From: Candidatus Peregrinibacteria bacterium
Lineage (GTDB): Bacteria > Patescibacteriota > Gracilibacteria > UBA1369 > LOWO2-01-FULL-3
NCBI GenBank assembly: GCA_030592015.1
Contig: JAUUZY010000005.1
Span: 400 to 64,399, forward strand
Length of the DNA stretch: 64,000 bases
Reading direction: 5' to 3'
Below are positions 14,501 through 31,256 of this stretch, piece by piece (within the stretch, counting starts at the first letter, position 1; each line of letters begins with the position of its first letter). The position numbers were made by a program, and so were the translations under genes. The notes under the pieces were generated by a model. That model searched no databases. It saw nothing but the letters and a program-made list of their open reading frames with translations, and was not told the origin of the DNA.

Positions 14501-17500
14501 CACAGAGTTATTACCAAAGCCACCAGAAATCCCTCCAATCAGATTTCCCTTTGGATAATCCACCTCATTAGTATGATTTTCTTTCAGATAAACATCTCCA
14601 CCCATGGAGAAGATAATATCGAAATCACTATCACCATCAACATCATTGAACAAAGTATGTATTTCATTTTCCAATTCACTCGTATAGTTCAACACATTTT
14701 CACTTCCATTCCCGACTGCAACAAAGAATCCTATCGGAACAGGAACAGTAGCAGCTTCATCTGACTCCAGGTAATCATCAACATCAAAATCTATATTTGC
14801 AGCAAGCAGATTACTCGTATCAAGATCGCTCACGCCACTCACATCTCTGAGTCTCTCTTCTACAGCCTCACCAAAGAAACTGGATTCAACAGTTGTCTCG
14901 GTAGATACAGGTTCATACATCTTACTTGTAGAAAGAGCGACAATCTGTCTCACACTCTGATCATTGTCGACAAGAATCCTGCCAAATTCATTATAATCCT
15001 CGATCTCACCAAGTACTGTATTAGATTCATCCAAGCCCTTTGTATACGCAATTAGGGAGTCGCGAAGCTCGGCCATATGCCTCATCTCAGGAGTATCAGG
15101 AAGATCCTGAAGCAGTATATCCGCCTCAACTTCGGCAAGAGTTCTGTTTAGTATAGGATCTGAAGGATCCAAATATTCTTGAGTCGCAGTCAGATAATAT
15201 GTATCGGGATAATCAATCTGCTCCATATTATCCACATAGTCATTCAAGCTTTGATTAATGTTATTGAAATATCCTTCCACCTTAGCTATCTCAGGAGGAA
15301 GATAAGCACCGGCATCACCACTAATATCAGCACCGACTTCTTCAGCAGCATCCTCAATAGGTGAAGTAATAGGATCAACAACTCCTTCAAGCAAAGGCAC
15401 AGCAACATCAATAGCGGTTTCAGTAGCTTTCTTAAATGCAGTATCTACGGCATCATCCAGAACCTTCTGCCATGATTTCCCGCTAACTGTATTTACATTT
15501 TCAACCAAATCCATAACTTTCTCATTAAACTTATCGGCCCCATTTTTTAGAATCACATATATAAAGTCAGTCTCGATCCCCATATCCAATTTTGTAGTTA
15601 TCTTAATCTGTTCAACATAATCGTATTGAATTTCAGGCATCTGAACTCCAAGGTTTTTGATAAGAGGCAAGACAACCTGCACACTCGGCTGAGTCAAAGT
15701 CTCGATTTCAGTTGCAAGCCCCCATTCAGGAACAGGAATAAGTCCTTTCTTCAGTAGACAGAGGACGGCAAATATAGGCTTTAGATTGACAATAAGATCT
15801 CCAATAACATCAGGTAGTTGTGGGATCTTTGGCGGTCGAGGAAGGTCCGGCAATTGCGGTAATGGCAAAGGCGGAAGATCCGGAAGATCAGGCAGAGTGA
15901 AGGTAGGGAAGTCCAGCCAGTCAGGAAGATCAAATCCCGGAACTACTAATCGTAGCTCAGGAGATATCTCGGGAAGTGTAATAGTTGGTAGATCAGGAAG
16001 CCTTATCGGCTCAGGTTTGAACACAAGATCAGGCCAAACAATTTTTATACCGGCTTTTACCTGGGAAATATCAAAAACGATATCCGGCCACTTTGGCATA
16101 GGGATAATAGGGGGATCCGGAATAGCCGCAAAGAAACTCAAAAGTATTCCAAGCTTGCTAAATCTGTCATTTTTACACTGGTCACAATTCACTTGATAAT
16201 CAACAATCAGATCGAGCAACAATTTCCAGTCTCTGATAGTTCGGATAACATCCTCAATCGCTCTCATCCATGACTCTATAGTTTTCTGCTGTCTGCTAAT
16301 GTATCCACCTGTGTAATTCATTATCGCATCCATATAACAAATCAACTGAGTCGCATACTTTGCCTCAAGGTTCCTCCAAGTCAAAATATCTTTCGGTAGC
16401 CTTGAAATCTGGTCAATTTTGTCCATAGCCGCTCGCACAGACTTGATCAACTCTGTCATATCGAGAGTCACAGCATCACAAAGAGTTCTTCTCTCTTCAC
16501 TTATATTACATGTCCAATAATCTTCTATTTTCTGAATCTGCTCTTGTTCATATTCAATCCAAAGTACCGCTTGTCTCTTCCATTTTTCAACTTCAGCTTG
16601 AGAAATAGCCGGTACTCTTATAAACACCTCTTTTCCTTCAATCTGGAACAAAGGCATACTGTTTACAGCCCTCAAAAAGTCATGAACGGAAAGGAATCCA
16701 CCTCGATTTTTATCGAAGTTCTTGAGCGAAACAGCATGATCAGAAATTAAGCTATTCACATCAGGATAGATGAAATATAAGTCAGGTAAATCCAGTAATT
16801 TATTGAATATTTCATCGGTTTGATTATCCAGCCAGTTAGTAATCACACTTGGGAATCCGGGAATTCTGATATTCACAGCGCTGGAATACGATAGGGGAGA
16901 ATCAGGATCAGAATAATTGCTACTTGTATTGATAGCATCGGATCCGGCTGAATTTTCTCCATCAGATACAATAGTCGACATTCCCACGTCAGGATTTGAG
17001 TTAGAACTCTTCGCTTTTGCCACGGCATCATTGACCGGACCGAGAAGGTCAGGACATACACCTGCAGCCTGTACCGGCACTGCAGCAGCATAACAAGGTG
17101 ACATGTGTCCAATGTTTGGACCGGCACATATGGCAGTCCCAAGCCCACCTGTCAGAGTAGGGGAGATATACCACCTTACACTAGAAGTTAAATTTGAAGG
17201 GTAAAAAGGCATAACATACGGAGGATTCGGAGTTCCAATTGCAATCGCTGCAATCCCGGGAATCGGTCCATCCGGAGCAAGGAAAGCTCTATTGTACGGA
17301 ATCGGCAAACATCCTCCACCGGAACATCTCAGTAAGGTACTTACATTCTTGATCCCGTTGGCAATCGACTCAGAAAGATCTTGGTACTCCCCCAATGCAT
17401 CATCCCAAGAATCAACACTACCGTCATAATCGCTATCAGCGTTTTGTGAAGCCATTAACGCACTCATTCTATCTTGGAATTCTTCTGAGTTAGGATCCAC

Positions 17501-20500
17501 ATCATCAAAATCAGTCGGATTAATCCCTCCTGTTCTTTCAGCCTGCTCATCAAACAATTCCTCCAGAGTAGGCTCAGAGCTAACCCTGTTTTCCAGATAA
17601 TTTACCCTTCCATTGGAAACTCCAATGGAATATTCATAAATCAACTCTGCACTTGGATTTATTTCAGGCCTTATCTGAAGATCCAGATAAGGATCATTGT
17701 TGTATGAATGTCCCAAAGCACTAAGGGGATAGTTTGCAAAATCATTACCAATATCAAAGTTCACCTTTGGCATCCGGTCAACGCTGGCAGAATAAGAAAT
17801 GGTCCTCTTGCCTCCGGCAGGGACAGTAATACCGGTGATTACAAGTGAACGAGCACTCATCCCGGTTTCAGCCCACTCTAGCTCATCTCTGCAGCCACTA
17901 TCCATGCATTGCAAAGTATCTTCCAAAAGAGTCATGGAAGGAGGACTAACATCAGAGAGCATCATATTCACAATATTAGAGCCACCATTGTTATTCAAAG
18001 TAATAATATATTTTACCCTGTCATCCAATGCGATCACTTCTCCATTCACATCAACAGAACTCTTTGTAGATCTTGAAAATCTCACATCCTGCTTAATGTT
18101 TATGAAGTCGTAGTTTTTCGGATAAGTCTGTTCAGGGATATCTCCAGTAGCAATATTTTCATTATTTAAAAGGGAATTCTGCAAATCAGTAACTGCATTT
18201 GCATAGCCTTCTACCTCCGCATTACCAACAGGAGGGTCATCACTAGGGAGTGTGAATTGAATAAACTTTCCTGAGTTGTCTTCCACAGTATCAGTATGCT
18301 CGACATCAGAATATTCAGGGATAGTAGAGGAAAGTTGCTCCATTCCAGGATAATTAACAAAAATTGTACTCGAAATATCTACTTCAGGATCAAGCTGGAA
18401 TCCAAAATTCCAAGAATTCCCATGGTTAGTATCGAGCCCGATACAACTATCTCCATCAACTTTGTTATAGAAAATTCGAACGTTCCCAGCCGAATCACTA
18501 GTCACCAGATCCTCACACCCATCCGCATTCATATCTCCGGACTTCATTTCATAAGCCTTCCCGTTAATAGCCAACTCTAGAGATTCCTTTTCAAAACTTC
18601 CACCTTGATTTATAAACTGACTCATACAAACTTCATCTACATTGCAACTTTCTTTAGTTCCAACTATCAGGTCATCAAATCCATCATTATTCAGATCAAT
18701 TTTAGTGGCGGAGAATATTCCATTAGACATTTTTAGAATATATCCCTTGTCCCTAAATCTCTTATTACTAATCTCATTCTCAAGTAGTCTCACAAGCCCA
18801 TCTTCATATAGAAGCAAGAGGTCGTCGCTACCATCACCGTTATAATCAAACTCAATCAACTGTTGTATGGTCTGTTCACCATTAAAGATTGGCTTGCCGA
18901 TATCTTTTGTATAGCCGGTAAGACCACTCACCAGACCAACCATTCCATCCAATTTTAGACGTATCATAGGATCTCCATAAATGACACCAATCTCTGAAGC
19001 ATATGGAATATGAGATTCTCCAACAGAATTTCCAGCAGAAAAGAAAAGCATATGTTTATTGTCTCCTTCAAATCCCAAACCTGAATTACTACCTACATCC
19101 TCCAGCGAAGTTTGACCAAAGCCGGGAGCACGACCGGCATCAAGACTTGAATTCTTATCAATCAGGTAAACACCATTTGGATTGTCGCTAGAAGTTCTGG
19201 AGAAAGCACTATTAAAGTCAAAATTGTCAGCGGCAGTATTTAATTTTACATAAATACCAGGGAAGAAGCTTGTAGCTTCATCTGCGAAAGGAATTATCTG
19301 AACAGCATTTTCAAAACTCTGTTTAAAAGTTATAAGAGTCAAGATTTCACCACGATCATATATTGCAAAGGCAAGATCATTACTCTCAAGACCATCGATA
19401 TCCTGCTGTGGGACTCTCATTTCAAGGGATTCATTATTTAGAGTGATTCTTCCAAAGCTATCCACTTTCAGCATCACAGTGCCATTATTTTCAACAAAAA
19501 CCGCATCGTTTCTCTCAACAAATTCAATATTACTATCGCTAAAAGATATTCTCTCAACATATATTCCATCCTCATCTTCGATTTTTTCTTCCTCCTCAAG
19601 CAATACAAGGTCTGTGCCATCACTTGGAACCATAAACATGGAGGCAAGTTCATCACCAAAAACACTATCGTCAAAAATCACTTTTTGATACGGGAACGAA
19701 TCGGTGGATTGAATAACCTGCATACCAACCGTTTCAGACAAAAGATCAATCTTTCCAAAACCATCCACTCCAATGAGCAGCTTGTCCCCCTCAGCAGATG
19801 CTGTGATTGATGAGACAGCCTGAGAGTCACCTGCATGAAGGAAGGTTTCAGCCAGATTATTCTCATCAAACATATTTCCAAAGGCACCACCAAGCAAAGA
19901 AACATAAAGAGCCCGTGGAGCAAATCCTTCAACATCATCACTATCAAGACGCTTCCTGACATCCAAACTTATCTTGTCACGCATGATCCAATCAGACTCC
20001 GCAACAAGATTGAGTTTTCCACTTATGCCGGATCCCTTAATTGTAGTGGTGGCAATTCCATTGAGAGGGAGCGCAGTCCTAGCTCCGGTAAATTCAATAA
20101 AGTCCTCAGTGGCAGTTGTCGGGAGAAAGCTAATTAGAGTTTCATTATCAGCAACAACCAGATTTCCATATCTATCCAAGATCCTAGCCTCAAGCTGTAC
20201 ATCTCCACCACTAGAGAAAACAATATCCTCAGAAGCGCTAAGTTCTATCCTATGAGGCTCGCCAGGCTCAATTTTTATAGTAACGCTATCAGTAGTAAAG
20301 CCAGGGACATCCACAACTATCTCAGCATCACCTGCAAGATTGTTAGGAATAAACACGGCATTTATTTCAGGCAAGGTCCCATCAACCATCTTTTTCTCCA
20401 GTTTTTGAATTGTCTGACCTGATTTTCCCAAAAATCCACCAAGGTTTGGATTAATATTTTCAATCACTATATCCCCACTATATTTATCAACTCTCACTCC

Positions 20501-23500
20501 ATGACTCATAAGATCAGCCCTAATCATTATTGACGAATCAGAACCTGGAATAAGATTTATATCTAAATTTACCTCATCAAGAATATCGAATGTTTCCTGT
20601 GCCACTACATAATCCCTAAAGTCTATTTTGCTCGTATCGTTCCCAGCCTCACTCAGCAAAGTCTCCAATTCATAATCCAGAAGCACAGCAAAGAGCTCAA
20701 GATTTTCAATAATATCATCTTCAGAAAACAAAACAGTATCAGCAGTACCGGCAAAAGTACCAAGTTGAGTTCCAATCAGAGCGGCATTTATATCGGAGAT
20801 TTGATCAAGATGCGCACCTTCTTCCACAAACAAAGCAATTTGTGCAAAAGTATTATCCGCAACATTTCCAAATTCATCCTTCACAATAAGCTTCAAGTCT
20901 GTCTTCGATTGCTCATTGGCAACAAGCACAAGGGAGTCTGCCTTTATCTCTATTTGGCTAGGCTCACCTGCGACAAGGCTCAGTTCACGATCTAATACCG
21001 GATAAGGCTCACCCACAACCACAGCCCTTAGAGCAAAATCTCCACTTACAGTTCCGGCCCTCAAATAAACAGTAGCCACACCATTCTCACTCTGAACAAC
21101 CTGACCATTCTCAAAAACAACAATATCTTCCACATCCGAAATTACAGAGAATTCAACCTGATGAGTTCTACTGTTATCAAATTCTCCCAGATCGTCAAAG
21201 AGATGAACATTAATCATCATAAGAGATTGACCATCAGCAACCATTTCAATATTCGCCTCAAGTTCATATATGCTATCCGGATTTTTCTCAGCATCTATAA
21301 AAGGATTTTCACTATCAGGAATAAGAGCCAACATACTGTCAGAGAAAAGTTCAGCAACCGGCCTAGTTCGACCTATTGATTGTACAGTTGAGTCCAAAAA
21401 GTTTTTCTGGTAATCCTTCCATTGATAATACCTTAGCCAGTTATCCGGAGCTACAGTCTCAACATGCGCATCTTCTTCCTCAGTTACTTCTTCCACGATA
21501 TCCTCAACAATTATTTCTTCTTCAACCGGCTCTTCAAGCACATCCTCAGTTGTTTCATCCAATTCAACAAGCTCTGAGAGAAGTATTATTATATTTCCAT
21601 CTTCATCATATTCGACAGCATCACTGCCATCAGTAGCCCCACCACCATCAGTAGCCCTACTACCGTCAGCAATCTCACCACCACCATCGACAACATCGCC
21701 ACCATCAACAACCCCGCTACCATCAGCAACATCGCCACTACCATCGGCAACCTCACCACCACCATCAACAACCTCACCACCATCATCAACATCGCCACCA
21801 CCATCAACAACACCGCTACCATCAACAACTCCATCACCATCAACAACCCCACCACCATCAACAACATCGCCACCACCATCAACAACACCGCTACCATCAA
21901 CAACACCGCTACCATCAACAACTCCATCACCATCAACAACCCCACCACCATCAACAACCCCACCACCATCGACAACTCCACTACCATCGACAACACCGTC
22001 ACCAGCATCAGCAACCCCCAGAACATCTTCAGGCGATACATCACTATCTTTAGTAGCAAGATACTCAGCATAAGGATCAAACCCTAATTCATCGTCAGCA
22101 ACTAATTTATTTATTTTCTCCAAATCATCCTCGTCCAGACCGGCTTCATAAACAGTGAAACTCAAAATCTCCATTTTTCTATTGCTGCTAAGAACCTTCA
22201 CGTTGTTCGATTCAAGCCCGGACTCACTGCCCAGGTAAAGAGTAACCTCTCCGGATTTGTTCGTAGAATTCAAACTAAAACTAGCCTCACCTCCAACAAA
22301 AGTTTTTTGATTCGTATCAATAAATACCAAAACAGGATCATCTTCATCCTGATCAATGGTCAAAGTTAATGCTTCAGTGTTTCCAGTGTGACCTACCAAA
22401 TTTCCGTTTTCATCAATACCTTTTACACTAACTTTAACGGTATCTACACCGTCAGCGGAAAGAATAGGCTTATCAACAGTCAGCTCAAGTTTAGAAACAG
22501 GCAGAGCAGTAATAACTTCAGTATCTTCGGAAAAATCATCCTCAGCAAAAAGTTGGGACGCACCGCAAGACTCCTCAAACTCAAGCCCATCATCCCAGAC
22601 AGTTATAAACAAAGGCAGTGCAATAAGTGCCTCGATAAATTCCTGGGTTTCCGTCATGAAATCTCGCAACGGAACAAAATCATCATCGTTTTCATCAGGA
22701 CTAAGTCCCTGGTCCCGCGTTTCTACACCGGAACCTTCACCATCCGCAGAAACATAAATACTCAAAGGATCAAAACTGGCATCCGTTTCCTCAGGAATGT
22801 CTTTGTTGAAATTCATATCGAAATAATCCTTTTCACCATCCAGCACCAGGTACGCAGACTCATAACCGTTTTTCACGCTGTAGCCTGGAGGGGCAGGTCG
22901 CATAGTTGAATCAACAACAAAGGAAGTTTCATCCGGAGCAGGATTCAGATATTTCCTTAGAACATAATCATGCTTATCATCGATATTTAAATTCAGCCAT
23001 CCAATAGCATCATGTAATTTTAGTGTAGAAGCAGTCTCAAGATTAAAGCCACTAATAGGAACATCAACTTGAGATCTGGTAATTATAGAAAAATAATTAT
23101 TAATAATTTCATCACGAATATCTCTATAGTCACCTGGACGAACATCAGGATTTGGAATCGTATGACTTCCTGGCATCAAAGCTATACGCCAAGCAAGAGC
23201 ATCCAGATCTGCCTCCAATTGCGACAAATTCTCAACTCTAAATGAATTTGGGAAAATAACTTTTTCAGTATTACCCGGATAATAGTGCGGAGTGGTTCGA
23301 AGACTGCCAACGATAGCTTGAACATCAATAGAGTCATTTATAGGGCGAGGATCGGGATAGTCCATAGGGTGTTCAGGATCAGACGTCGGTGGCAACGGCT
23401 GTGCCTGGAAGGCTAGGTATCTAGGACTATCAATAGGCAAACTAAACGAAGCCATCGATTTTATCTGCTGAGAAATTGTATAGTCGGTCGGTTCATTATG

Positions 23501-26500
23501 ATAAACAAGACTGGAGATATCTTTGTAGAGATCAGGTTCAACCTTCAAAGTGATATCGGAATCAAAAGAAGTTAATTGATGTGGAATAGTATAAGTAGAT
23601 TCATGGGACAAAAGTTTTCTGGCAATCTCATCCATATTTTGACTTGGAATTCCATATTGAATATCGGCCTCATCAAAGTCATACCATTTTGTTTCATAGA
23701 CTCCATCCTCATTTGTGTCACGCCATTCATAGTCCACGATCCCATTAGCATTGTTGTCTATTCCATCAAAAAGTCCATAACGATCAGAAAACTCCTTCAA
23801 GCTAACAAGCTCACCATCACTAGCATTTAGAACAACATCACTAGCATTGTATTCATCCAAACTGAGCCAAACATCCTCAATGTCAGGAGAAACATCAGCA
23901 TCAGCTGCATTCGGAACAGGCTGAGTAATAAACTTTCCAACAGCTTTCAGATATCGCCCATACAAATCAATTGAAATATTGTATCCCTCAAAATCAACAT
24001 CGACAAGGGGACCAAAATCAAACTCGCTAGGCGGATTCAGCGGGTAGTCATAGTAATTCGAATCACTGGCAAGGCTTCCAACAGAAGGAAGACCCGAGTA
24101 GCAAGAATCAAAATAAACATCATCAATATCTTCATAGCTATACTCATCCGGGAATTGGAAAAGATCCATATGGTCATCGTAGTCAGCAGGGTTAGACGAA
24201 TTCTGATTGCCTTCCTTTTTTACATTTTCAGGAAATTTTAATTGGAACTCATCTTCACCGGGAATCTCTACCTTCAAAGGTGCAACACTTCCAGCAGGGT
24301 CGGCTATAGGCATAGAAGCAAGCTTTGGGAAACAGCGATCACTATTTTTCCCAGCAGAATTTTGAGAACAACCGGCATAACTGTCATAGCCCTTATTCCC
24401 ATATCCTCCACGCTCACTACCGGCTTGACGCATATCATTGATAGTGAAAATCGCACCATCACTACCGGACCTAAAGCTAAAGAAACGATCATCCTGAAAG
24501 TCAAATCCTTCAGGATATCCAATATCTGAGAGAAGAATAAATACTCTAGGTGCATTATTCATAAATCCGGAACCAATTGCTCCTTCGGCAGAAGTTAGTC
24601 CACTCTTATTCAAAGTAAAACTAAAGTTATCTTCCATCAGCTCTCCATCCCTATAGAATTCAATTCCAATATTGGCTTTGGTAGAATTTATATCTCCATT
24701 TTCCAAAGCTGCCATTTTTGATTCACCTACAGGAACACCAAACATTGGACCTTCAGCATCCATACTTACTTCATAGGCAAGATCGGGAATACTGCTCAAT
24801 TGATCGTTGTTAACCGCAGATATAAACCTCTGAACATCTCTATATGACCTTTCAATCGCCTGATCAAACGACCATCGATAATCAATCGTTCTATTATTTA
24901 CACGCACAATCAGGTCACCCTCTTGCAATATTCCCTCAAGTGGATTGCTATAATTAGCATAAAGATGATTATGGGTAAAAGCCGGAACTCCACGATTAAG
25001 ATCATTTTCAATATAAGCACCGGGAACAGACAGACCTGTAAGCTCATGAGCCTCACTTGCAGAAATTACTCGGGTATTCACTCCGCTAGTATGCACAGGC
25101 ATAGAAGTGGAAATGTTATCAGTCCTAAGGGCACGAGTAAGAATAGAATACTCACCATCAACCGCAATTGGGTTGAAATCAAGATTTTCATCGAAATATT
25201 CAGACTTGGTCGAACCAAGGAACACACTACATTGCTTTGGATTTTCCAGAAGCTCAGCATCAATTCCGTTTATGTAGAATTTCCCATTAGCCTCATTAAG
25301 ATAATGGAATCTATAGTCAGTCTGGAACACAAGAGGAATAGGGGAGATGTCATCAGACGCAAAATTAATGACAAAATCATCACTATCTCCAAAGTATCCG
25401 GATATCCTGGAAGACTCCAAAATAGGCAAAGGCTCATCAATAAGATCGATAATTTCCATAACTTTTTTCTCCACAGCAGTATTTACTTCCTTCAAGTATT
25501 TCTTGGAGAATTCGTCCTTGATAGTTATAAGAACGGCAATATTGTCCATATCATCAGGAGTATAACGACCGGTATTTTCCGCCCAATCATTCGACTGCGC
25601 CACATACTTACTAAAAATTTCATAATACGTAAGAAGAGACTGTTCTATAATTGTCTTAGTGAATACATCCGGAACACTGGCAAGCGCATCGTCACTTTGA
25701 AACGATCCCAAAAACTCGGCAGCATCCTCACTTGGAGGATCAATTGCCACCTCACTTGCAATATCCCCAATCAACTGCTTCGCCCAAAACTTGTTGTATC
25801 TGTTGTAGGCAAGGTGCTCAATATTATCTAAGTACTCTATATAGTGAGAATAAACATCAGGATTTATTTTTTCCTCCTCATGAAGAAGGTCAGCAAAGAA
25901 CATTTTCTTCTCAAATTCCGCAAAATCAGGATGCCCTTCATAGTAGAGGTGATTCTTATCAAAAAATGTAGCCAATTTCTCTTTTCCTTCCCTATCTTCA
26001 GAAGGAGCCCTGATTATTCCATGCCAAATCTCAGGCTTAGGGAAGTTACTATCAAAATTCCTCTCAAACGATTCCGATTCAGAACTATATAGATAAGCCT
26101 TGTCATCAAAGTCAGTATAAGGAAATAGGCTAATAAACTTATTCCCATCTTTATTTACAACAGGCATAGGAATATCACCCACCAATACAACCCCAGCCAG
26201 TCGATTATTCCCGTTGCCATCACCATTCTGGTAAAGGTTCTCCAATGCATTTGCTAAGTCCACCACAGAGTCTTCTTCCTTGTCATAAAAAATGATCTTC
26301 GCATCGGTGAGGTCATAATTTGAACTTATATCATCAGCATATCTCAAAATCCTTGCACCAAGTGTAGGGGCATCCAAGGAAGAATATTCATTCCCAAGCC
26401 CCACATAAGAACTGTCCCCAAGGCTATTGTCTACCACTATTGCAACCAGGTCATATACTATATCCGGATCATTTGGAGACTGAGCTTGAGCAACAGCAGC

Positions 26501-26620
26501 TTCCACATCTCTATTAAATGAAAAAGCATATGCAACAGGTAAAGGTACTGTTCCTGTAACAAGCATCATTAATACGAGAATTGAAGGGACGATTTTTCGC
26601 TGTATAAAGCTAAATTTCAT
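11582..26620 (-). CDS. Giant (~5,012 aa) secreted surface protein: C25-peptidase-like N-domain, PDZ-like segment, Ig-like (Big/invasin) domains, VVDGxG repeats, FG-GAP/VCBS repeats, DUF11-like domain, Cys-rich and Pro-rich core, PKD/FN3-like domains, SLH repeats, DxDxDG Ca-binding repeats
   Basis: Uninterrupted 15-kb ORF. Likely start MKFSFIQRK...PVAYA at 26620 (track starts at 26686). Motifs: GVVLVGDIPMP...PEIWHGII; LQEGDLIVRVNN; LSADGVDTVKVSV; DYNGDGSDDLL, DLNNDGFDDLIVG, DMNADGCEDLV; FNPQELVNRAEFVK, FKPENTITRAESVK; DTDGGGVNDGDE. Confidence 0.85.
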   Translation of the reverse strand: MKFSFIQRKIVPSILVLMMLVTGTVPLPVAYAFSFNRDVEAAVAQAQSPNDPDIVYDLVAIVVDNSLGDSSYVGLGNEYSSLDAPTLGARILRYADDISSNYDLTDAKIIFYDKEEDSVVDLANALENLYQNGDGNGNNRLAGVVLVGDIPMPVVNKDGNKFISLFPYTDFDDKAYLYSSESESFERNFDSNFPKPEIWHGIIRAPSEDREGKEKLATFFDKNHLYYEGHPDFAEFEKKMFFADLLHEEEKINPDVYSHYIEYLDNIEHLAYNRYNKFWAKQLIGDIASEVAIDPPSEDAAEFLGSFQSDDALASVPDVFTKTIIEQSLLTYYEIFSKYVAQSNDWAENTGRYTPDDMDNIAVLITIKDEFSKKYLKEVNTAVEKKVMEIIDLIDEPLPILESSRISGYFGDSDDFVINFASDDISPIPLVFQTDYRFHYLNEANGKFYINGIDAELLENPKQCSVFLGSTKSEYFDENLDFNPIAVDGEYSILTRALRTDNISTSMPVHTSGVNTRVISASEAHELTGLSVPGAYIENDLNRGVPAFTHNHLYANYSNPLEGILQEGDLIVRVNNRTIDYRWSFDQAIERSYRDVQRFISAVNNDQLSSIPDLAYEVSMDAEGPMFGVPVGESKMAALENGDINSTKANIGIEFYRDGELMEDNFSFTLNKSGLTSAEGAIGSGFMNNAPRVFILLSDIGYPEGFDFQDDRFFSFRSGSDGAIFTINDMRQAGSERGGYGNKGYDSYAGCSQNSAGKNSDRCFPKLASMPIADPAGSVAPLKVEIPGEDEFQLKFPENVKKEGNQNSSNPADYDDHMDLFQFPDEYSYEDIDDVYFDSCYSGLPSVGSLASDSNYYDYPLNPPSEFDFGPLVDVDFEGYNISIDLYGRYLKAVGKFITQPVPNAADADVSPDIEDVWLSLDEYNASDVVLNASDGELVSLKEFSDRYGLFDGIDNNANGIVDYEWRDTNEDGVYETKWYDFDEADIQYGIPSQNMDEIARKLLSHESTYTIPHQLTSFDSDITLKVEPDLYKDISSLVYHNEPTDYTISQQIKSMASFSLPIDSPRYLAFQAQPLPPTSDPEHPMDYPDPRPINDSIDVQAIVGSLRTTPHYYPGNTEKVIFPNSFRVENLSQLEADLDALAWRIALMPGSHTIPNPDVRPGDYRDIRDEIINNYFSIITRSQVDVPISGFNLETASTLKLHDAIGWLNLNIDDKHDYVLRKYLNPAPDETSFVVDSTMRPAPPGYSVKNGYESAYLVLDGEKDYFDMNFNKDIPEETDASFDPLSIYVSADGEGSGVETRDQGLSPDENDDDFVPLRDFMTETQEFIEALIALPLFITVWDDGLEFEESCGASQLFAEDDFSEDTEVITALPVSKLELTVDKPILSADGVDTVKVSVKGIDENGNLVGHTGNTEALTLTIDQDEDDPVLVFIDTNQKTFVGGEASFSLNSTNKSGEVTLYLGSESGLESNNVKVLSSNRKMEILSFTVYEAGLDEDDLEKINKLVADDELGFDPYAEYLATKDSDVSPEDVLGVADAGDGVVDGSGVVDGGGVVDGGGVVDGDGVVDGSGVVDGSGVVDGGGDVVDGGGVVDGDGVVDGSGVVDGGGDVDDGGEVVDGGGEVADGSGDVADGSGVVDGGDVVDGGGEIADGSRATDGGGATDGSDAVEYDEDGNIIILLSELVELDETTEDVLEEPVEEEIIVEDIVEEVTEEEDAHVETVAPDNWLRYYQWKDYQKNFLDSTVQSIGRTRPVAELFSDSMLALIPDSENPFIDAEKNPDSIYELEANIEMVADGQSLMMINVHLFDDLGEFDNSRTHQVEFSVISDVEDIVVFENGQVVQSENGVATVYLRAGTVSGDFALRAVVVGEPYPVLDRELSLVAGEPSQIEIKADSLVLVANEQSKTDLKLIVKDEFGNVADNTFAQIALFVEEGAHLDQISDINAALIGTQLGTFAGTADTVLFSEDDIIENLELFAVLLDYELETLLSEAGNDTSKIDFRDYVVAQETFDILDEVNLDINLIPGSDSSIMIRADLMSHGVRVDKYSGDIVIENINPNLGGFLGKSGQTIQKLEKKMVDGTLPEINAVFIPNNLAGDAEIVVDVPGFTTDSVTIKIEPGEPHRIELSASEDIVFSSGGDVQLEARILDRYGNLVVADNETLISFLPTTATEDFIEFTGARTALPLNGIATTTIKGSGISGKLNLVAESDWIMRDKISLDVRKRLDSDDVEGFAPRALYVSLLGGAFGNMFDENNLAETFLHAGDSQAVSSITASAEGDKLLIGVDGFGKIDLLSETVGMQVIQSTDSFPYQKVIFDDSVFGDELASMFMVPSDGTDLVLLEEEEKIEDEDGIYVERISFSDSNIEFVERNDAVFVENNGTVMLKVDSFGRITLNNESLEMRVPQQDIDGLESNDLAFAIYDRGEILTLITFKQSFENAVQIIPFADEATSFFPGIYVKLNTAADNFDFNSAFSRTSSDNPNGVYLIDKNSSLDAGRAPGFGQTSLEDVGSNSGLGFEGDNKHMLFFSAGNSVGESHIPYASEIGVIYGDPMIRLKLDGMVGLVSGLTGYTKDIGKPIFNGEQTIQQLIEFDYNGDGSDDLLLLYEDGLVRLLENEISNKRFRDKGYILKMSNGIFSATKIDLNNDGFDDLIVGTKESCNVDEVCMSQFINQGGSFEKESLELAINGKAYEMKSGDMNADGCEDLVTSDSAGNVRIFYNKVDGDSCIGLDTNHGNSWNFGFQLDPEVDISSTIFVNYPGMEQLSSTIPEYSDVEHTDTVEDNSGKFIQFTLPSDDPPVGNAEVEGYANAVTDLQNSLLNNENIATGDIPEQTYPKNYDFINIKQDVRFSRSTKSSVDVNGEVIALDDRVKYIITLNNNGGSNIVNMMLSDVSPPSMTLLEDTLQCMDSGCRDELEWAETGMSARSLVITGITVPAGGKRTISYSASVDRMPKVNFDIGNDFANYPLSALGHSYNNDPYLDLQIRPEINPSAELIYEYSIGVSNGRVNYLENRVSSEPTLEELFDEQAERTGGINPTDFDDVDPNSEEFQDRMSALMASQNADSDYDGSVDSWDDALGEYQDLSESIANGIKNVSTLLRCSGGGCLPIPYNRAFLAPDGPIPGIAAIAIGTPNPPYVMPFYPSNLTSSVRWYISPTLTGGLGTAICAGPNIGHMSPCYAAAVPVQAAGVCPDLLGPVNDAVAKAKSSNSNPDVGMSTIVSDGENSAGSDAINTSSNYSDPDSPLSYSSAVNIRIPGFPSVITNWLDNQTDEIFNKLLDLPDLYFIYPDVNSLISDHAVSLKNFDKNRGGFLSVHDFLRAVNSMPLFQIEGKEVFIRVPAISQAEVEKWKRQAVLWIEYEQEQIQKIEDYWTCNISEERRTLCDAVTLDMTELIKSVRAAMDKIDQISRLPKDILTWRNLEAKYATQLICYMDAIMNYTGGYISRQQKTIESWMRAIEDVIRTIRDWKLLLDLIVDYQVNCDQCKNDRFSKLGILLSFFAAIPDPPIIPMPKWPDIVFDISQVKAGIKIVWPDLVFKPEPIRLPDLPTITLPEISPELRLVVPGFDLPDWLDFPTFTLPDLPDLPPLPLPQLPDLPRPPKIPQLPDVIGDLIVNLKPIFAVLCLLKKGLIPVPEWGLATEIETLTQPSVQVVLPLIKNLGVQMPEIQYDYVEQIKITTKLDMGIETDFIYVILKNGADKFNEKVMDLVENVNTVSGKSWQKVLDDAVDTAFKKATETAIDVAVPLLEGVVDPITSPIEDAAEEVGADISGDAGAYLPPEIAKVEGYFNNINQSLNDYVDNMEQIDYPDTYYLTATQEYLDPSDPILNRTLAEVEADILLQDLPDTPEMRHMAELRDSLIAYTKGLDESNTVLGEIEDYNEFGRILVDNDQSVRQIVALSTSKMYEPVSTETTVESSFFGEAVEERLRDVSGVSDLDTSNLLAANIDFDVDDYLESDEAATVPVPIGFFVAVGNGSENVLNYTSELENEIHTLFNDVDGDSDFDIIFSMGGDVYLKENHTNEVDYPKGNLIGGISGGFGNNSVSDYVVDGGASVQGVISPSENHKKVDISWIAKKDAVAYEVFIGSTPDGNENTAVARYVAVADPDAEFPNAFVLELADPNNPSISIELENGNYYPKIYAINADGEKSLPSFTNVIAPQSCSDNDSPFPAVSQIEYDIPLFTELEIDASNSFDSSGEIVAYYLETLPYDPDGKRATELRQFFYSDINYAYDEDGDGIAINDRSNPRFRVGPFEYEGDIGQHKFLLHVVDQSGNSSAQEIKVNVSAPNITLDETLARTSIATGETLPNMPVTLMRKRLIYRVVAGDLKAVEKNQKIETMTSDENGKYLSDETGVYTVNDLSVRDMLLVENSAGEIIAEIHPDTANVENLMDGYFINVEEANPPGTVTRIEIVDANGTVYATIHVVADQNTDVVVLEEVDFEDNIFELATGVHVSDENITDRYSFVKFAADDPDYPGAAALMDVIEGKQIAIVDSAGNVIFLADGVELIKKANDHTADPLIYELIYNGKVVAEIYVSVISGKRRVKIVGPNDVPFAQAHIPPSSDFVKTSLSKKEFIDVDDELAAILKELQKKDIIEGRESEDGIIFNPQELVNRAEFVKTLLKMLCIIPRPESYELGTEFNDIQYSESDLVWYYPFVKEASLLGLIHGYQGEIDNATGKSPFKPENTITRAESVKIILEALELKGVLNLEGLNVGDPWYDPFMLAGQNLTPYMTGNAVLQNNFIITTEEAANPEQEMTRAELVTMVTRVLEAYNCFEIDDDNDGMSDFCEEKYDIQNPDLDVDFDGVSNTDECSYGLDPTDADSDKGGTNDGDELDLGTNPLDAYDDPSDIDDDGLTDSEETNLYGTDPEIADTDGGGVNDGDEVRNGTDPLDASDDPPDRDFDGLSDSEEINLYGTNPAVADTDGGGVNDGDEVHKNLTDPLDGSDDFSDGGVYQEGESGVYVVPPECNTCPCTASILHGADIIPGDIFFSVISTEDEKHWFSKSNEVTIETVKK
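11790..12310 (-). repeat. Tandem ~150-bp repeats encoding thrombospondin type 3-like (bacterial DxDxDG) Ca-binding motifs
   Basis: DGLTDSEETNLYGTDPEIADTDGGGVNDGDEV versus DGLSDSEEINLYGTNPAVADTDGGGVNDGDEV. DNA copies start near 11831 and 11981. Confidence 0.85.
21620..22015 (-). repeat. 18/21-bp tandem repeat encoding VVDG(S/G/D)G hexapeptides
   Basis: Plus strand shows recurring CCACCATCAACAAC / CTACCATCAACAAC units; protein reads ...GVVDGSGVVDGGGVVDGGGVVDGDG... Confidence 0.9.
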
Positions 26621-26750
26621 AGGTATGACTTGGAAGGTGAGGACACAATTTTCCAAGTATAAATTATAGCAGCTTTTACAGGGCAAAAACAGTTAGTCCA
26701 AGCGCCAAAATCGCTTTTGAATTGACAGGCTAGAGGGGGTGTGCCGTGAC

Positions 26751-26789
26751 TTATTTTACACGAAGAGCATAGCACCAAGTACCTGAGTT
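26751..26789 (-). pseudogene. Relic 3' end of a fourth pilin gene
   Basis: Reverse complement reads AAC TCA GGT ACT TGG TGC TAT GCT CTT CGT GTA AAA TAA = NSGTWCYALRVK*, matching the pilin end DSATWCYAVFVK*. Out of frame with the adjacent pilin and has no start codon. Confidence 0.75.
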
Positions 26790-26791
26790 AA

Positions 26792-27274
26792 TTATCTAAC
26801 AAGCACACCATAACACCAAGAGTTCTCATTGTTTTCGATAGGAGTGCCCATAGAACCCTCAGCTATATCACCACAATTTCCATTAGCAGACCCAAAAATC
26901 TCAACATTTACTCTAATAGAGAAAGAATAGTTGTTACCAGGGTTAGAAACATATTTGTAATCATGTCCACTAGGATCCATAGGAATTTTCCCACCAAAAT
27001 CAGAAAGGAAAGCCTCTCCCCAAGAGCCAGGTTCAGAGGCCGGCCAACCTGTATTCATATCTGGGCTGATCTTTCCAGATGCATTTGGGAAAGCATCATC
27101 AGTCTCTAGACCATAGTTCAATAAAACCATTTGAATTTTTTGTAGGTCAGAAATTCTCTGAGCATCACGTCCTTTAGCAGGAGCTCTAAGCAAGGTAGGA
27201 AGAAAAGCCACAGCCAAAATACCAATGATGGTAATAACTATAAGTAGTTCGATGAGTGTAAAACCTTTTTTCAT
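26792..27274 (-). CDS. Type IV pilin / pseudopilin (copy 3)
   Basis: Class III signal KKG|FTLIELLIVITIIGILA with E5; KGRDAQRISDLQKIQ; C-terminal Cys pair. Confidence 0.9.
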   Translation of the reverse strand: MKKGFTLIELLIVITIIGILAVAFLPTLLRAPAKGRDAQRISDLQKIQMVLLNYGLETDDAFPNASGKISPDMNTGWPASEPGSWGEAFLSDFGGKIPMDPSGHDYKYVSNPGNNYSFSIRVNVEIFGSANGNCGDIAEGSMGTPIENNENSWCYGVLVR

Positions 27275-27289
27275 TTTAAAGTATTAAAA

Positions 27290-27778
27290 TTATTTAACAA
27301 AAACTGCATAACACCAAGTCGCCGAGTCAGAAGAATTCTGAGTGCCCAAAACACCTCCAGATACAGAGCCACAATTTGCATTTGCATTTTCAAAAATCTC
27401 AACAGCCCCGGTTATGGCAAGGGAATATTTTCCTGAACCAGGCGAATTAACATAGTAATAAGATGATCCATCTGGTTTAGTAGGGATTGCACCTCCAAAA
27501 TCACTAGAAAATGCACCAGCCCAATCATCAGCAGGGGCTCCAAATCCGGTTGCAAGCCCCGGAGTTATCACTCCTGTAGTAGGATATCCAGATCCATTTT
27601 CGAGGTTATAATTAATAAGTACTTTTTGAATCTTTTGAACATCAGCCATTACTTGCGTATCTCGCCCCTTTACAGGTGCCCCAAGCAAAGTAGGAAGGAA
27701 GGCCACAGCCAAAATTCCAATGATAGTAATGACAATAAGCAGTTCGATAAGGGTAAAACCTTTTTTGGATTTAAACAT
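27290..27778 (-). CDS. Type IV pilin / pseudopilin (copy 2)
   Basis: KKG|FTLIELLIVITIIGILAVAFLPTLL; KGRDTQVMADVQKIQ; C-terminal Cys pair. Confidence 0.9.
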   Translation of the reverse strand: MFKSKKGFTLIELLIVITIIGILAVAFLPTLLGAPVKGRDTQVMADVQKIQKVLINYNLENGSGYPTTGVITPGLATGFGAPADDWAGAFSSDFGGAIPTKPDGSSYYYVNSPGSGKYSLAITGAVEIFENANANCGSVSGGVLGTQNSSDSATWCYAVFVK

Positions 27779-27811
27779 TTTTAATAGGAGTTAGTTTGAG
27801 TTTTCTACGAT

Positions 27812-27847: not shown

Positions 27848-27881
27848 AAAAAAGAGGGACGTCCTTTCGGCCGCCCCTCTT
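27848..27881 (-). terminator. Intrinsic terminator after pilin copy 1
   Basis: Minus strand AAGAGGGGCGGCC-GAAA-GGACGTCCCTCTTTTTT: GC-rich stem, GNRA loop, U tract. Confidence 0.8.
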
Positions 27882-27910
27882 CAAGCAGTTCTAAATTAAG
27901 CTAACTACTA

Positions 27911-28411
27911 TTAGTTAGACAAAAGAATATGACACCATAGAGATGCATCTCCACTATCGGTAGGAGCTACTATGTCACCAGCTGCAGCACCTACACAGGT
28001 TGTATTTGCATTAACAAAAAGCTCAACATCTGCCCAGATACCAAAAGTATAAGTTCCACTACCAGGTGCATCTATATAAGTATAAACCTCTGCATCTTGT
28101 GGCCCAGTTGGTAGTGTACCACCAAATTCAGGCGCGAAAAGAGCACCCCAAGTGTCACCAGAAGTCCCTGTAAAGAATAGTCCTGTTGCAATTGCACCAG
28201 CTTCAGTAGGATAACCATTACCACTTTCTAGGTCATAGTTAACCAAAACTTTCTGAATCTTTTGAAGATCAGCGATCCTCTGTGTGTCACGCCCTTTAGC
28301 TGGCGCTCCAAGCAGTGTTGGCAAGAAAGCCACAGCGAGGATACCAATGATCGTAATAACGATCAGTAGCTCAATAAGGGTAAAACCCTTTTTGTTTTTT
28401 AACATTCTCAT
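27911..28411 (-). CDS. Type IV pilin (copy 1; probable major pilin)
   Basis: KKG|FTLIELLIVITIIGILAVAFLPTLL; has its own promoter and terminator. True start may be ATG 28405. Confidence 0.9.
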   Translation of the reverse strand: MRMLKNKKGFTLIELLIVITIIGILAVAFLPTLLGAPAKGRDTQRIADLQKIQKVLVNYDLESGNGYPTEAGAIATGLFFTGTSGDTWGALFAPEFGGTLPTGPQDAEVYTYIDAPGSGTYTFGIWADVELFVNANTTCVGAAAGDIVAPTDSGDASLWCHILLSN

Positions 28412-28437
28412 AGGAGTTAAGAATTAAACTTTCCTTA

Positions 28438-28474: not shown

Positions 28475-29734
28475 TTAGATTGATCCAGCCAAATTGGACA
28501 ATTCCATGATAGGCAACATGATTGCGGCCACTACCGCACCTACTGTAATACCGATAATTATAAGCATTATCGGCTCAATGATTTTTGACAAACCTGCCAC
28601 GGTTGTATCAACTTCATCCTCATAAAAGTCTGCAACTTTCGCCATAATAGTATCAAGCTGAGCAGTACTTTCCCCAACTTCAATCATGCTCACCAGCATC
28701 GGAGGGAAAAGATCACTAGCAGTAATACTCTCTGCCAAAGGTATACCTTGTTTTATATCCTCAACGGAAAGCATTAATCTTTTTCTATAAACCTCATTAC
28801 CAACAGAGTCAGCAGTAATCTGCATAGTTCTTATAATAGTAACACTACTATCCAGTAGGTTACTAAGGGATCTAGCAAATCGGGACAGGTGAGACTTCTT
28901 TAGTAATGCCCCAAATATAGGAATGTTAATCTTTATCTTATCTATATAGTATCTACCACTCTCAGTTTTTTTAGCGATAATGAAAGTGAGAATTAGGCCA
29001 CCAATTACAGCGGCAATCTGTAACTTTCCATTAATCAATATATCACTCATCCCCACAACGATTCGTGTAATTAGAGGTAGTTCAGTACTGGTAGAAGAAA
29101 AAAGATCTGTTAATTGTGGTATTACAAACATCAACATTACGGCAATTACAGCAACCAGTAATGTAAAAATTACAATCGGATACATAAGTGCACTTTTCAC
29201 TTTTTTTCTGATGGTGCTTGATTTCTCAGTATCATGTGCAAGAACTTCCAATGTCTTACTCAATTGACCGGAAACTTCACCCGCCTGTATCATTCCAACT
29301 TCTTGCTCAAAGAAAACATCAGGAAAGGCAAACAAAGCTTCAGATAAACTTGAACCAGCCACAATTCTTCCCTCCAATTCATCAATTATCATCTTCATTC
29401 TTGGGTCTTTATTCATTTGTCTAGAAAGAGATTGAAGCGCCTTAACCATAGGAATTCCAGAATTGATCATCACGGATAGAAGGTGGAAGAAAGTCGCCTT
29501 AACCTGAATCTTTATCTTGGAATGTTTAACCATGTAAAAGTTAATCCTTTTGAAAATATCCAAGAAAGGATTACCAGTTCCCTCAAATTGAAAATCTCTA
29601 GCCTTTTCAAGCTCAATCCCTGTAGTAGACTCTTCCTTAATGTTCAGAATTACTCGCTTCTTTTTTTCCTGATCAACCTTGAAAGCTTCGCTACCATATG
29701 TTGAGAAATCCTTGTTTTCTTTTTGTTCTGGCAT
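28475..29734 (-). CDS. pilC: Type IV pilus platform protein PilC (T2SS F family)
   Basis: LSVMINSGIPM, AGEVSGQL, ALMYP, FPPMLVSMIEVGESTAQLD, IIEP. Confidence 0.92.
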   Translation of the reverse strand: MPEQKENKDFSTYGSEAFKVDQEKKKRVILNIKEESTTGIELEKARDFQFEGTGNPFLDIFKRINFYMVKHSKIKIQVKATFFHLLSVMINSGIPMVKALQSLSRQMNKDPRMKMIIDELEGRIVAGSSLSEALFAFPDVFFEQEVGMIQAGEVSGQLSKTLEVLAHDTEKSSTIRKKVKSALMYPIVIFTLLVAVIAVMLMFVIPQLTDLFSSTSTELPLITRIVVGMSDILINGKLQIAAVIGGLILTFIIAKKTESGRYYIDKIKINIPIFGALLKKSHLSRFARSLSNLLDSSVTIIRTMQITADSVGNEVYRKRLMLSVEDIKQGIPLAESITASDLFPPMLVSMIEVGESTAQLDTIMAKVADFYEDEVDTTVAGLSKIIEPIMLIIIGITVGAVVAAIMLPIMELSNLAGSI

Positions 29735-29735
29735 A

Positions 29736-31256
29736 TTATTCAGTTTTACGTGCTACACGGTAAACTTCATCCAGTGTTGTAACACCTTCAAGGGCCTTGA
29801 TGATTCCAGATTGTTCCAAAGTCACCATTCCCGCTTTTTGGGCAGATTCCTGTAGTGCCATCATAGTAGCTCCTTCAGAAATTAACTTCCTAAGCTCATT
29901 ATTCATTCTAAATACTTCATAAAGACCAAGTCGCCCACTATATCCAATATCGTTACACTTATCACAACCCTTAGCTTCATAGAACTGTAGCTTTTCAACA
30001 AGCTGAGGATCAACCTCACCTTCTGCATGCAGGTTCTCAAGAGCTTTTTTCACCAAATCAATCATTTCAGGACTGGTTTCTGCAGGGCCTTTACAATGTT
30101 CACATATCTTTCTAACCAAACGTTGGGCAATAATAATTTCAATAGTTGAATTCAATAGATAAGGCTGGATTCCCATATTGATCAAACGTGTAATAGACTC
30201 AACTGCACTATTCGTATGCAGTGTAGAGAATACCAAGTGACCTGTAAGAGAAGCCTCGATAGCAGTATTTCCAGTTTCTTTATCACGAATCTCACCTACC
30301 ATCACAATATCCGGATCCTGACGTAGGGCAGCCCTCATTCCAGTGGCAAAATCATAGTCGATGTCATGATGCACCTGACTCTGATTCAAACCATCAAGCT
30401 GGATTTCCACCGGATCCTCAATAGTAAGGATATTCACCCCTATCTTATTTACACGCATCAAGCATGAGTACAGAGTAGTTGTTTTACCTGAACCTGTAGG
30501 ACCAGTAGTAATAATAATTCCATTTGGAGATTCCAAGGCCTCCTCCATGTGTCTCAAACTAATTCCTGAAATTCCCAACTCCGGCAAATCAGGTATTTTT
30601 CGTGACTTGTCCTGCAAACGCATTACAATCTTTTCTCCATTTACAGTAGGCAAAGTAGAAACACGAAGATCCATCTCTCGTCCGTCCTTAGTTGTAACAT
30701 CGGCTCTTCCATCTTGAGGAATTCGCTGTTCATCAATTTTTAAATTGGACATGATCTTTATACGTGAAACAACCGCAGGATGAAGGTTCGAAGGATACTC
30801 AACGATATGTCTAAGAACTCCATCAATACGATACCTAATTCTTACGTGAGACTTTAGTGGCTCTATATGGATATCAGAAGATTTCAGATCTAAGGCATAA
30901 CCTATGGAGATCATAACCATCTGAGGAATATTTGCTGCCAAAATGCTGTCATGCAATTGAGTCAATTTTTTGTCATTTGCCTTCTTGATTGCTAAATCCT
31001 TCTCTTTATCATCCGTAGTTGGAGTCGCAGGAGCAACTGCTGCGGGCTGAGCCGTAGGAGCGGCAGGGCTAGGACTAGGTTCCGGAAGAGGCTTAGGCAT
31101 TGGAGCCGGTTTAGCCAGAGGGGCTGGTTTAGCTACGGGAACTGGTGCGGCCACAGGAGCCGGTTTAGCCACGGGGGCAACCGGAGGAACAACAGTTTTT
31201 ACTACCGGAGTAGCTTGAGTAACCTGAGCTTGTTGTGCATTGTTTTCATCAGCCAC
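29736..31256 (-). CDS. pilB: Type IV pilus assembly ATPase (PilB/GspE family) with a Pro/Ala-rich N-terminus
   Basis: SDIHIEP, PQDGR, Walker A GPTGSGKTTT, TIEDPVE, LRQDPDIVMVGEIRD, TGHLVFSTLHTN, tetracysteine CEHC/CDKC. Confidence 0.9.
   Translation of the reverse strand: MADENNAQQAQVTQATPVVKTVVPPVAPVAKPAPVAAPVPVAKPAPLAKPAPMPKPLPEPSPSPAAPTAQPAAVAPATPTTDDKEKDLAIKKANDKKLTQLHDSILAANIPQMVMISIGYALDLKSSDIHIEPLKSHVRIRYRIDGVLRHIVEYPSNLHPAVVSRIKIMSNLKIDEQRIPQDGRADVTTKDGREMDLRVSTLPTVNGEKIVMRLQDKSRKIPDLPELGISGISLRHMEEALESPNGIIITTGPTGSGKTTTLYSCLMRVNKIGVNILTIEDPVEIQLDGLNQSQVHHDIDYDFATGMRAALRQDPDIVMVGEIRDKETGNTAIEASLTGHLVFSTLHTNSAVESITRLINMGIQPYLLNSTIEIIIAQRLVRKICEHCKGPAETSPEMIDLVKKALENLHAEGEVDPQLVEKLQFYEAKGCDKCNDIGYSGRLGLYEVFRMNNELRKLISEGATMMALQESAQKAGMVTLEQSGIIKALEGVTTLDEVYRVARKTE

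Follow-up and report, generated by a model that had tools for sequence, protein, structure and literature searches.

Orphan 3' ends of genes are known from Rhs and CDI loci and from T6SS effector-immunity loci of Vibrio, where C-terminal or sequential displacement is attributed to homology-facilitated illegitimate recombination, as described by Kirchberger et al. (2017, PMC5361080). For antigenic variation, Neisseria is reported to possess 19 silent pilS copies that cover the variable regions, together with a Sma/Cla repeat downstream and a G4 located upstream of the expressed gene pilE (PMC6796969). The lpl genes of Staphylococcus aureus illustrate the birth and death of tandem paralogs, with in-register rearrangement via a conserved central region (Tsuru and Kobayashi 2008, PMC2568036). 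In the Saccharibacteria, type IV pili of TM7x mediate host binding (PMC11623550), and natural competence has been described (PMC10187176). Here we discuss a 39-nt pilin 3' end that lies directly behind the last of three pilin genes in a Candidatus Peregrinibacteria genome and that, whatever the route, is very probably the dead scar of a lost pilin gene.

The closest known kind of structure is the orphan 3' ends left by Rhs and T6SS displacement. As in Rhs, CDI and Vibrio T6SS loci, a constant 5' end is combined with a variable 3' part, a start-less 3' end of another allele is found behind an intact gene, the far end would have been joined illegitimately, and competence of the cell is indicated, here by ComEC, DprA and RecA genes. 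The differences are that one 39-nt tail is present instead of a string of tails, that no retained immunity gene selects for the displaced piece, and that displacement and deletion are indistinguishable at this site. With pilS the tail has in common that it is a pilin piece without promoter and 5' constant region, containing the second Cys and the tail, close to expressed pilins, but there is only one piece of 12 codons, with no common downstream repeat and no G4. The lpl genes are likewise tandem surface-protein paralogs whose number varies and which are occasionally joined illegitimately close to gene borders, whereas the pilins discussed here have no exact word longer than 14 nt in common and the join is out of register. 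TM7x resembles the source organism in having several pilins beside PilB and PilC in an ultra-small bacterium, but it belongs to another lineage, and the part of the TM7x report that was available (PMC11623550) describes no orphan tail. Titles and abstract openings yielded no literature on orphan pilin tails in CPR bacteria. The scar is a new instance of a familiar recombination footprint, and no new mechanism is involved.

The source genome (1.2 Mb, 75 contigs, approximately 90% complete) is the sole member of its genus among the genomes compared, and the window, i.e. the whole stretch of 64,000 nucleotides that was analysed, is located on its contig C27. On the minus strand, a PilB-type ATPase (T2SSE, 29736..31256) is followed by a PilC-type platform protein (T2SSF, 28475..29734), which is the conserved upstream border of the pilin array, by three pilins, and by a giant ORF of about 5000 aa (11582..26686), which is the conserved downstream border. 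Pilin 1 (27911..28411, 166 aa), pilin 2 (27290..27778, 162 aa) and pilin 3 (26792..27274, 160 aa) each carry the N-methylation motif. A terminator-like hairpin followed by a T run is present on the same strand 3' of pilin 1 (27851..27882, z -3.98), the spacer between pilins 2 and 3 measures 15 nt, and there is no terminator 3' of pilin 3. The N-terminal part of the giant protein has matches in 46 of 55 family genomes; the ORF itself displays low-complexity Gly-Val-Asp repeats as well as C-terminal repeats, and open frames of up to about 5100 aa occur in the family. Upstream of the giant gene lies a conserved TGTCAA box (26722..26727, minus strand; TTGACA on the other strand), which precedes the promoter-like region of the giant gene in most relatives (L021-L064) and could represent either a regulator site or a -35 element, in the latter case of an antisense promoter directed towards the pilins.

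Among named organisms, the closest PilC relatives come from Ca. Peribacteria (67%) and Ca. Peregrinibacteria (58%), with the other 78 of 80 loci at 34-39%, from which a CPR bacterium of the Peregrinibacteria type is inferred. A PilC scan of genome contigs gave two close loci among these 80, with no pilin downstream in either. In the Ca. Peribacteria record (L067, 3500-3946), a duplicated block of about 120 nt follows pilC, and there is no pilin within the contig. Pilin-like sequences were also seen outside the array. On the plus strand of the window, a protein of 551 aa (56714-58369) that has a hydrophobic stretch at its N-terminus ends in a pilin head (approximately 57938-58312) that is about 40% identical to the array pilins and has no N-methylation helix. 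A distant pilin-head match on another contig (G000:C34:21159-21554, minus strand; 33% to pilin 2, E 4e-7) has no N-terminal motif in the aligned part.

The stop codon TAA of pilin 3 (26794-26792, minus strand) is followed by a TT linker (26791-26790) and then by 13 codons (26789-26751) that read NSGTWCYALRVK and a stop, including the last conserved Cys. The end of pilin 2 is DSATWCYAVFVK, that of pilin 3 is NENSWCYGVLVR and that of pilin 1 is DASLWCHILLSN, each followed by a stop; the 39-nt tail occurs only once in the source genome. In the frame of the tail, a TAG is found three codons upstream (26798-26796), with only ATA and ATT in between, and the tail frame contains no ATG, GTG or TTG start codon. 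The orphan tail is untranslated from any standard start. Recoding of TAG can be rejected, since this codon terminates 192 of the 620 long ORFs of the source genome and thus is an ordinary stop. The preliminary description of this DNA had reported a start-less pilin end 2 bp behind the stop of pilin 3, with a TAG upstream, as well as the endings of pilins 2 and 3, and this observation is confirmed. The in-frame TAG, the pilin 3 stop and the 2-nt linker together form a junction zone on the minus strand (26790..26798), in which the join must be 3' of the T of the TAG.

Two comparisons show that the orphan tail is a real pilin end. When aligned to the pilin ends, the tail obtained a BLOSUM62 score of 49, a value reached by none of 2000 dinucleotide shuffles of the 105-nt spacer (mean 8.6, sd 4.5, maximum 36), so that the match is significant against shuffled intergenic sequence. 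With a tail profile built from other genomes only, the source genome being left out, the orphan scored 22.8 bits and took rank 2 among the 52,850 stop-terminated 12-mers of the genome, between the ends of pilin 3 (23.0 bits) and pilin 2 (22.2 bits); the end of pilin 1 scored 6.6 bits, and the best non-pilin 12-mer among the same positions 11.0 bits. Similar ends are present in intact pilins of relatives, as illustrated by NSGSWCYAILNQ followed by a stop in G024 and by an Arg at the equivalent place in G002 and G054.

The tail is that of a distinct pilin allele and bears the marks of evolution as a coding end. Across the final 39 nt, the orphan is identical to pilin 2 at 29 positions, to pilin 3 at 24 and to pilin 1 at 20, while pilins 2 and 3 are identical to each other at 26. 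Five of the 10 differences from pilin 2 are at third codon positions, and the W, C, Y and stop codons are retained. When decay was simulated by random substitutions equal in number to the observed differences (200,000 draws each), a score at the level of the orphan was retained with P 0.0005-0.0013 starting from the tail of pilin 2 and with P 0.000005-0.000025 from that of pilin 3. A looser test, which required only that WCY and the stop were kept and the frame stayed open, was passed in 0.02-0.04 of cases from pilin 2. Since the simulated P is at most 0.0013, the tail is too well kept for a decayed copy, which bears out the earlier proposal that it is no copy of a current pilin. The lack of decay over 39 bases implies only that the event is not ancient.

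The orphan tail is likely the former end of the pilin array, as its spacing to the TGTCAA box resembles that in relatives without a hairpin. The distance from stop codon to box is 23 nt for the orphan and 64 nt for pilin 3. In relatives whose last pilin has no hairpin it is 2-36 nt in seven of eight cases and 69 nt in one, and in 14 relatives in which a hairpin is present it is 57-116 nt, with the hairpins judged by eye.

Regarding the origin of the array, a branch with support 98/91 separates pilins 1-3 from the others in a tree of 58 family pilins, and the upstream regions of pilins 1 and 2 are alike (31 nt, 71%). The single clade and the common upstream sequence suggest that the array grew within the lineage by local duplication, and the clade also means that pilin 3 does not originate from any sampled distant genus. 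The GC3 values of the three genes are alike (0.26-0.28). Their N-termini are highly conserved, with 38-42 of 45 residues identical, and nucleotide identity drops to 0.42-0.68 in the head. Even in the conserved 5' part, the codons for identical residues differ in 17 of 38 to 24 of 41 cases (45-59%), and the three pilins have no exact word longer than 14 nt in common, which indicates that they have not recently exchanged sequence by way of the 5' end. A collapse in register is not favoured either. The parent allele of the tail was searched for in metagenome contigs with a degenerate pattern for TWCYALRVK plus stop, which gave no match, and in 204 other genomes of the order, where one match with two mismatches was obtained, a number equal to that of the reversed control and therefore taken as chance. 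When metagenomes were scanned with the giant protein's N-terminus, 118 candidates emerged, none of which was confirmed.

For comparison with relatives, upstream DNA was examined for 43 of the 46 giant-gene matches, the matches in G042, G055 and G056 being omitted as partial or at a contig edge, and a pilin end was visible in 40 of these 43 loci. No orphan tail was found in the 43 loci by a tail-profile scan that recovered 44 of 60 annotated pilin ends above 4.5 bits and that divergent, shorter or decayed scars would escape. Among 7,239 other stop-terminated 12-mers in these loci and the own locus, six exceeded 4.5 bits, and these were the orphan tail and five real pilin ends cut by a contig edge or N gap. 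A six-frame search with a full-length pilin HMM gave no further fragments in the loci, but this HMM was too blunt, as it also missed the orphan tail. Counted by motif in the 32 loci in which the end of pilC was found, and with undercounting at N gaps, there is one pilin in 18 loci, two in eight, three in five and four in one. Since family arrays hold 1-4 pilins, gains and losses recur. The sizes of arrays in MAGs are often uncertain, with N gaps inside pilin genes in L041, L053 and L062 (from G013, G024 and G015, respectively).

Many of the relatives' loci have unrelated genes between pilC and the giant gene, and we consider this cargo hotspot of greater interest than the scar. Eight of 11 interval ORFs that were tested passed Pfam cut-offs, with matches to YhcG/DUF1016, AbiEii (two), KilA-N, HicA, HicB, NYN and PemK. 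The interval is a site of cargo throughout the family (L032, L033, L046, L049, L054, L064 and others). AbiEii genes occur there in pairs and HicA together with HicB, and further cargo consists of an S-layer-like protein in G024 and, in G051, a protein with Cys-rich repeats. Related, unnamed ORFs run antisense to the pilins in L024 (1347-2292, G012) and L029 (752-1571, G008; positions in array orientation). They have a Cys/His-rich C-terminus with an HNH-like end, and the one that was tested matched no Pfam family over the cut-off.

The preliminary description had interpreted the tail as a scar of pilin deletion or replacement, and this interpretation is sustained by an untranslated tail of a distinct allele that also scores with an independent profile. 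Because the join is out of register, an illegitimate event is needed, but the histories of deletion and displacement yield an identical sequence. There is about an even chance that the tail is the remnant left by one short-homology deletion of nearly all of a fourth pilin. After expansion of the array to four genes by local duplication, a single illegitimate join would have connected the DNA just behind the stop of pilin 3 to the last pilin, 13 codons ahead of its stop, with loss of the start of that gene but not of the promoter region upstream of the giant gene; the remnant would be functionless and would erode. This route requires no donor and is favoured by parsimony and by one hint from the junction. 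The linker and the first six bases of the tail spell a word that resembles a family leader motif (TAAC(C)TCA-like, perhaps a translation signal), which precedes 24 of 48 first or long-spacer pilins by about 8-15 nt and is present before pilins 1 and 2 of the source array (at about 28412-28422 and 27785-27795). Speculatively, the join could have used a word of 5-8 nt that occurs both in a pilin leader and in the Asn-Ser codons of the tail. The junction word follows three of 1086 long-ORF stops in the source genome, the orphan site included, and the leader motif was found four times in 29,532 nt inside pilin genes and in none of 11 short pilin-pilin spacers; the hint was noticed after the fact, and given the codons of the tail only one more T is needed. 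Against deletion, the offset of 41 nt, which is near register, is at least as compatible with a strand invading along a similar gene as with a free deletion, the parent allele was not found in metagenomes or in the 204 genomes, and four-pilin arrays are rare (one of 32). It is also possible, if somewhat doubtful, that DNA from a close strain, anchored by homology at or upstream of the resident third pilin, brought in the present pilin 3 by C-terminal displacement, its far end being joined illegitimately so that the last 13 codons of the old gene stayed behind. In its geometry the site agrees with the displaced 3' ends known from T6SS and Rhs loci (PMC5361080), with a join near register (41 nt) and 2 nt past the new stop, profile matches over the cut-off for ComEC, DprA and RecA, foreign cargo acquired at the locus in relatives, and three genes sufficing before and after. 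However, the process is reported to be 100-1000 times rarer than homologous transformation (PMC6382021), the donor would have to be an unsampled close relative since pilin 3 clusters with the other two pilins and does not differ from them in GC3, there is no mosaic break beyond the usual drop from the conserved 5' end to the variable head, and neither a string of tails nor a tail in any of the 43 relatives' loci was seen. Replacement anchored through the 5' end, as proposed earlier, thus has a known mechanism in homology-facilitated illegitimate recombination and the competence genes on its side, but nothing favours it over plain deletion. The suggestion of active cassette turnover can be followed only as far as the variation of the locus at the family scale (1-4 pilins, toxin-antitoxin cargo), as there is a single scar, none in 43 relatives, no intact allele was found, and the 5' ends are not homogenised.

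Explanations in which no gene was lost in this manner, or in which the tail still serves a purpose, fare less well. An assembly artefact, in which the MAG contig was joined chimerically or collapsed and so lost most of an intact fourth pilin, is quite unlikely, even though pilin arrays are hard to assemble (N gaps in three of 32 loci) and no near-identical contig from three runs of one study, which were used as contigs of low depth, spans positions 26503-27004. An intact gene cannot contain the in-frame TAG, which leaves at most 8 nt to the left of the tail that could be common to both sides. Assemblers usually work with word sizes of 21 or more, far above these 8 nt, and no word common to the present pilins exceeds 14 nt. 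If a repeat lay on the right side instead, the tail would genuinely follow pilin 3. The contig has no N, and run X1, which contains 0.67 of the words, represents the same strain and may be the source sample, provided eight listed contigs over the flanking parts without any difference. A repeat collapse is unlikely. A 41-nt tandem duplication of a pilin tail with subsequent neutral decay would fit the head-to-tail arrangement with the end of pilin 3 at a spacing of 41 nt (repeat family D4), but the tail resembles pilin 2 more than its neighbour pilin 3 (29 versus 24 of 39), its score is retained with P <= 0.0013 when decay starts from pilin 2 and with P <= 0.000025 when it starts from pilin 3, and Tandem Repeats Finder did not report the repeat, which makes this origin very unlikely. 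We regard it as highly improbable that the tail is a working element, either a silent donor for tail switching of the pilS or shufflon type or a C-terminus reached by a -1 frameshift at the stop of pilin 3. Such a role would be in line with the absence of decay, with a 7-8 nt word around the Trp-Cys codons common to the tail and pilins 2 and 3, and with the frame that a -1 shift at the stop would enter, but a single 39-nt copy without a variable head, not conserved in relatives (0 of 43 loci), argues against it. More generally, the interval from pilC through the pilins to the giant gene could be envisaged as a cassette exchanger that captures pilin alleles and defence cargo of the population by transformation via conserved anchors, with the tail as a fresh footprint of capture that could be reused as an alternative pilin end via the short word that it has in common with pilins 2 and 3. 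This is unlikely, but if true, cassette exchange would reset host or phage specificity.

Several specific systems were considered and rejected. As for frameshifting, there is no slippery heptamer and no stable RNA structure (z 0.37). Diversity-generating retroelements employ a reverse transcriptase and a template that differs from its target only at adenines; in the source genome (90% complete) no PF00078 reverse transcriptase match was found, and the differences are not adenine-specific. In shufflons of the R64 pilV type, the crossover sites are inverted and a tyrosine recombinase is encoded next to them. Here the 25 longest inverted repeats all lie clear of the site, and the six PF00589 matches are all on other contigs. 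A pilS-type cassette is contradicted by the single 39-nt copy and by the absence of a G4 motif (four runs of G3) from the window, and no shared downstream repeat was present among the 20 largest direct families.

The scar alone matters little, being the trace of a single pilin gene that was lost or replaced in a single MAG. The 39-nt tail can nevertheless serve as a tag for finding the parent allele in strain data, and that allele would tell anchored illegitimate swapping of pilins from simple loss in these host-dependent bacteria. Throughout the family, 1-4 fast-diverging pilins lie between pilC and the giant gene, often together with toxin-antitoxin or nuclease-like cargo. Since pili bind hosts in cultured Patescibacteria, as described for TM7x (PMC11623550), this variable slot for pilins is a candidate source of variation in host range or phage escape.
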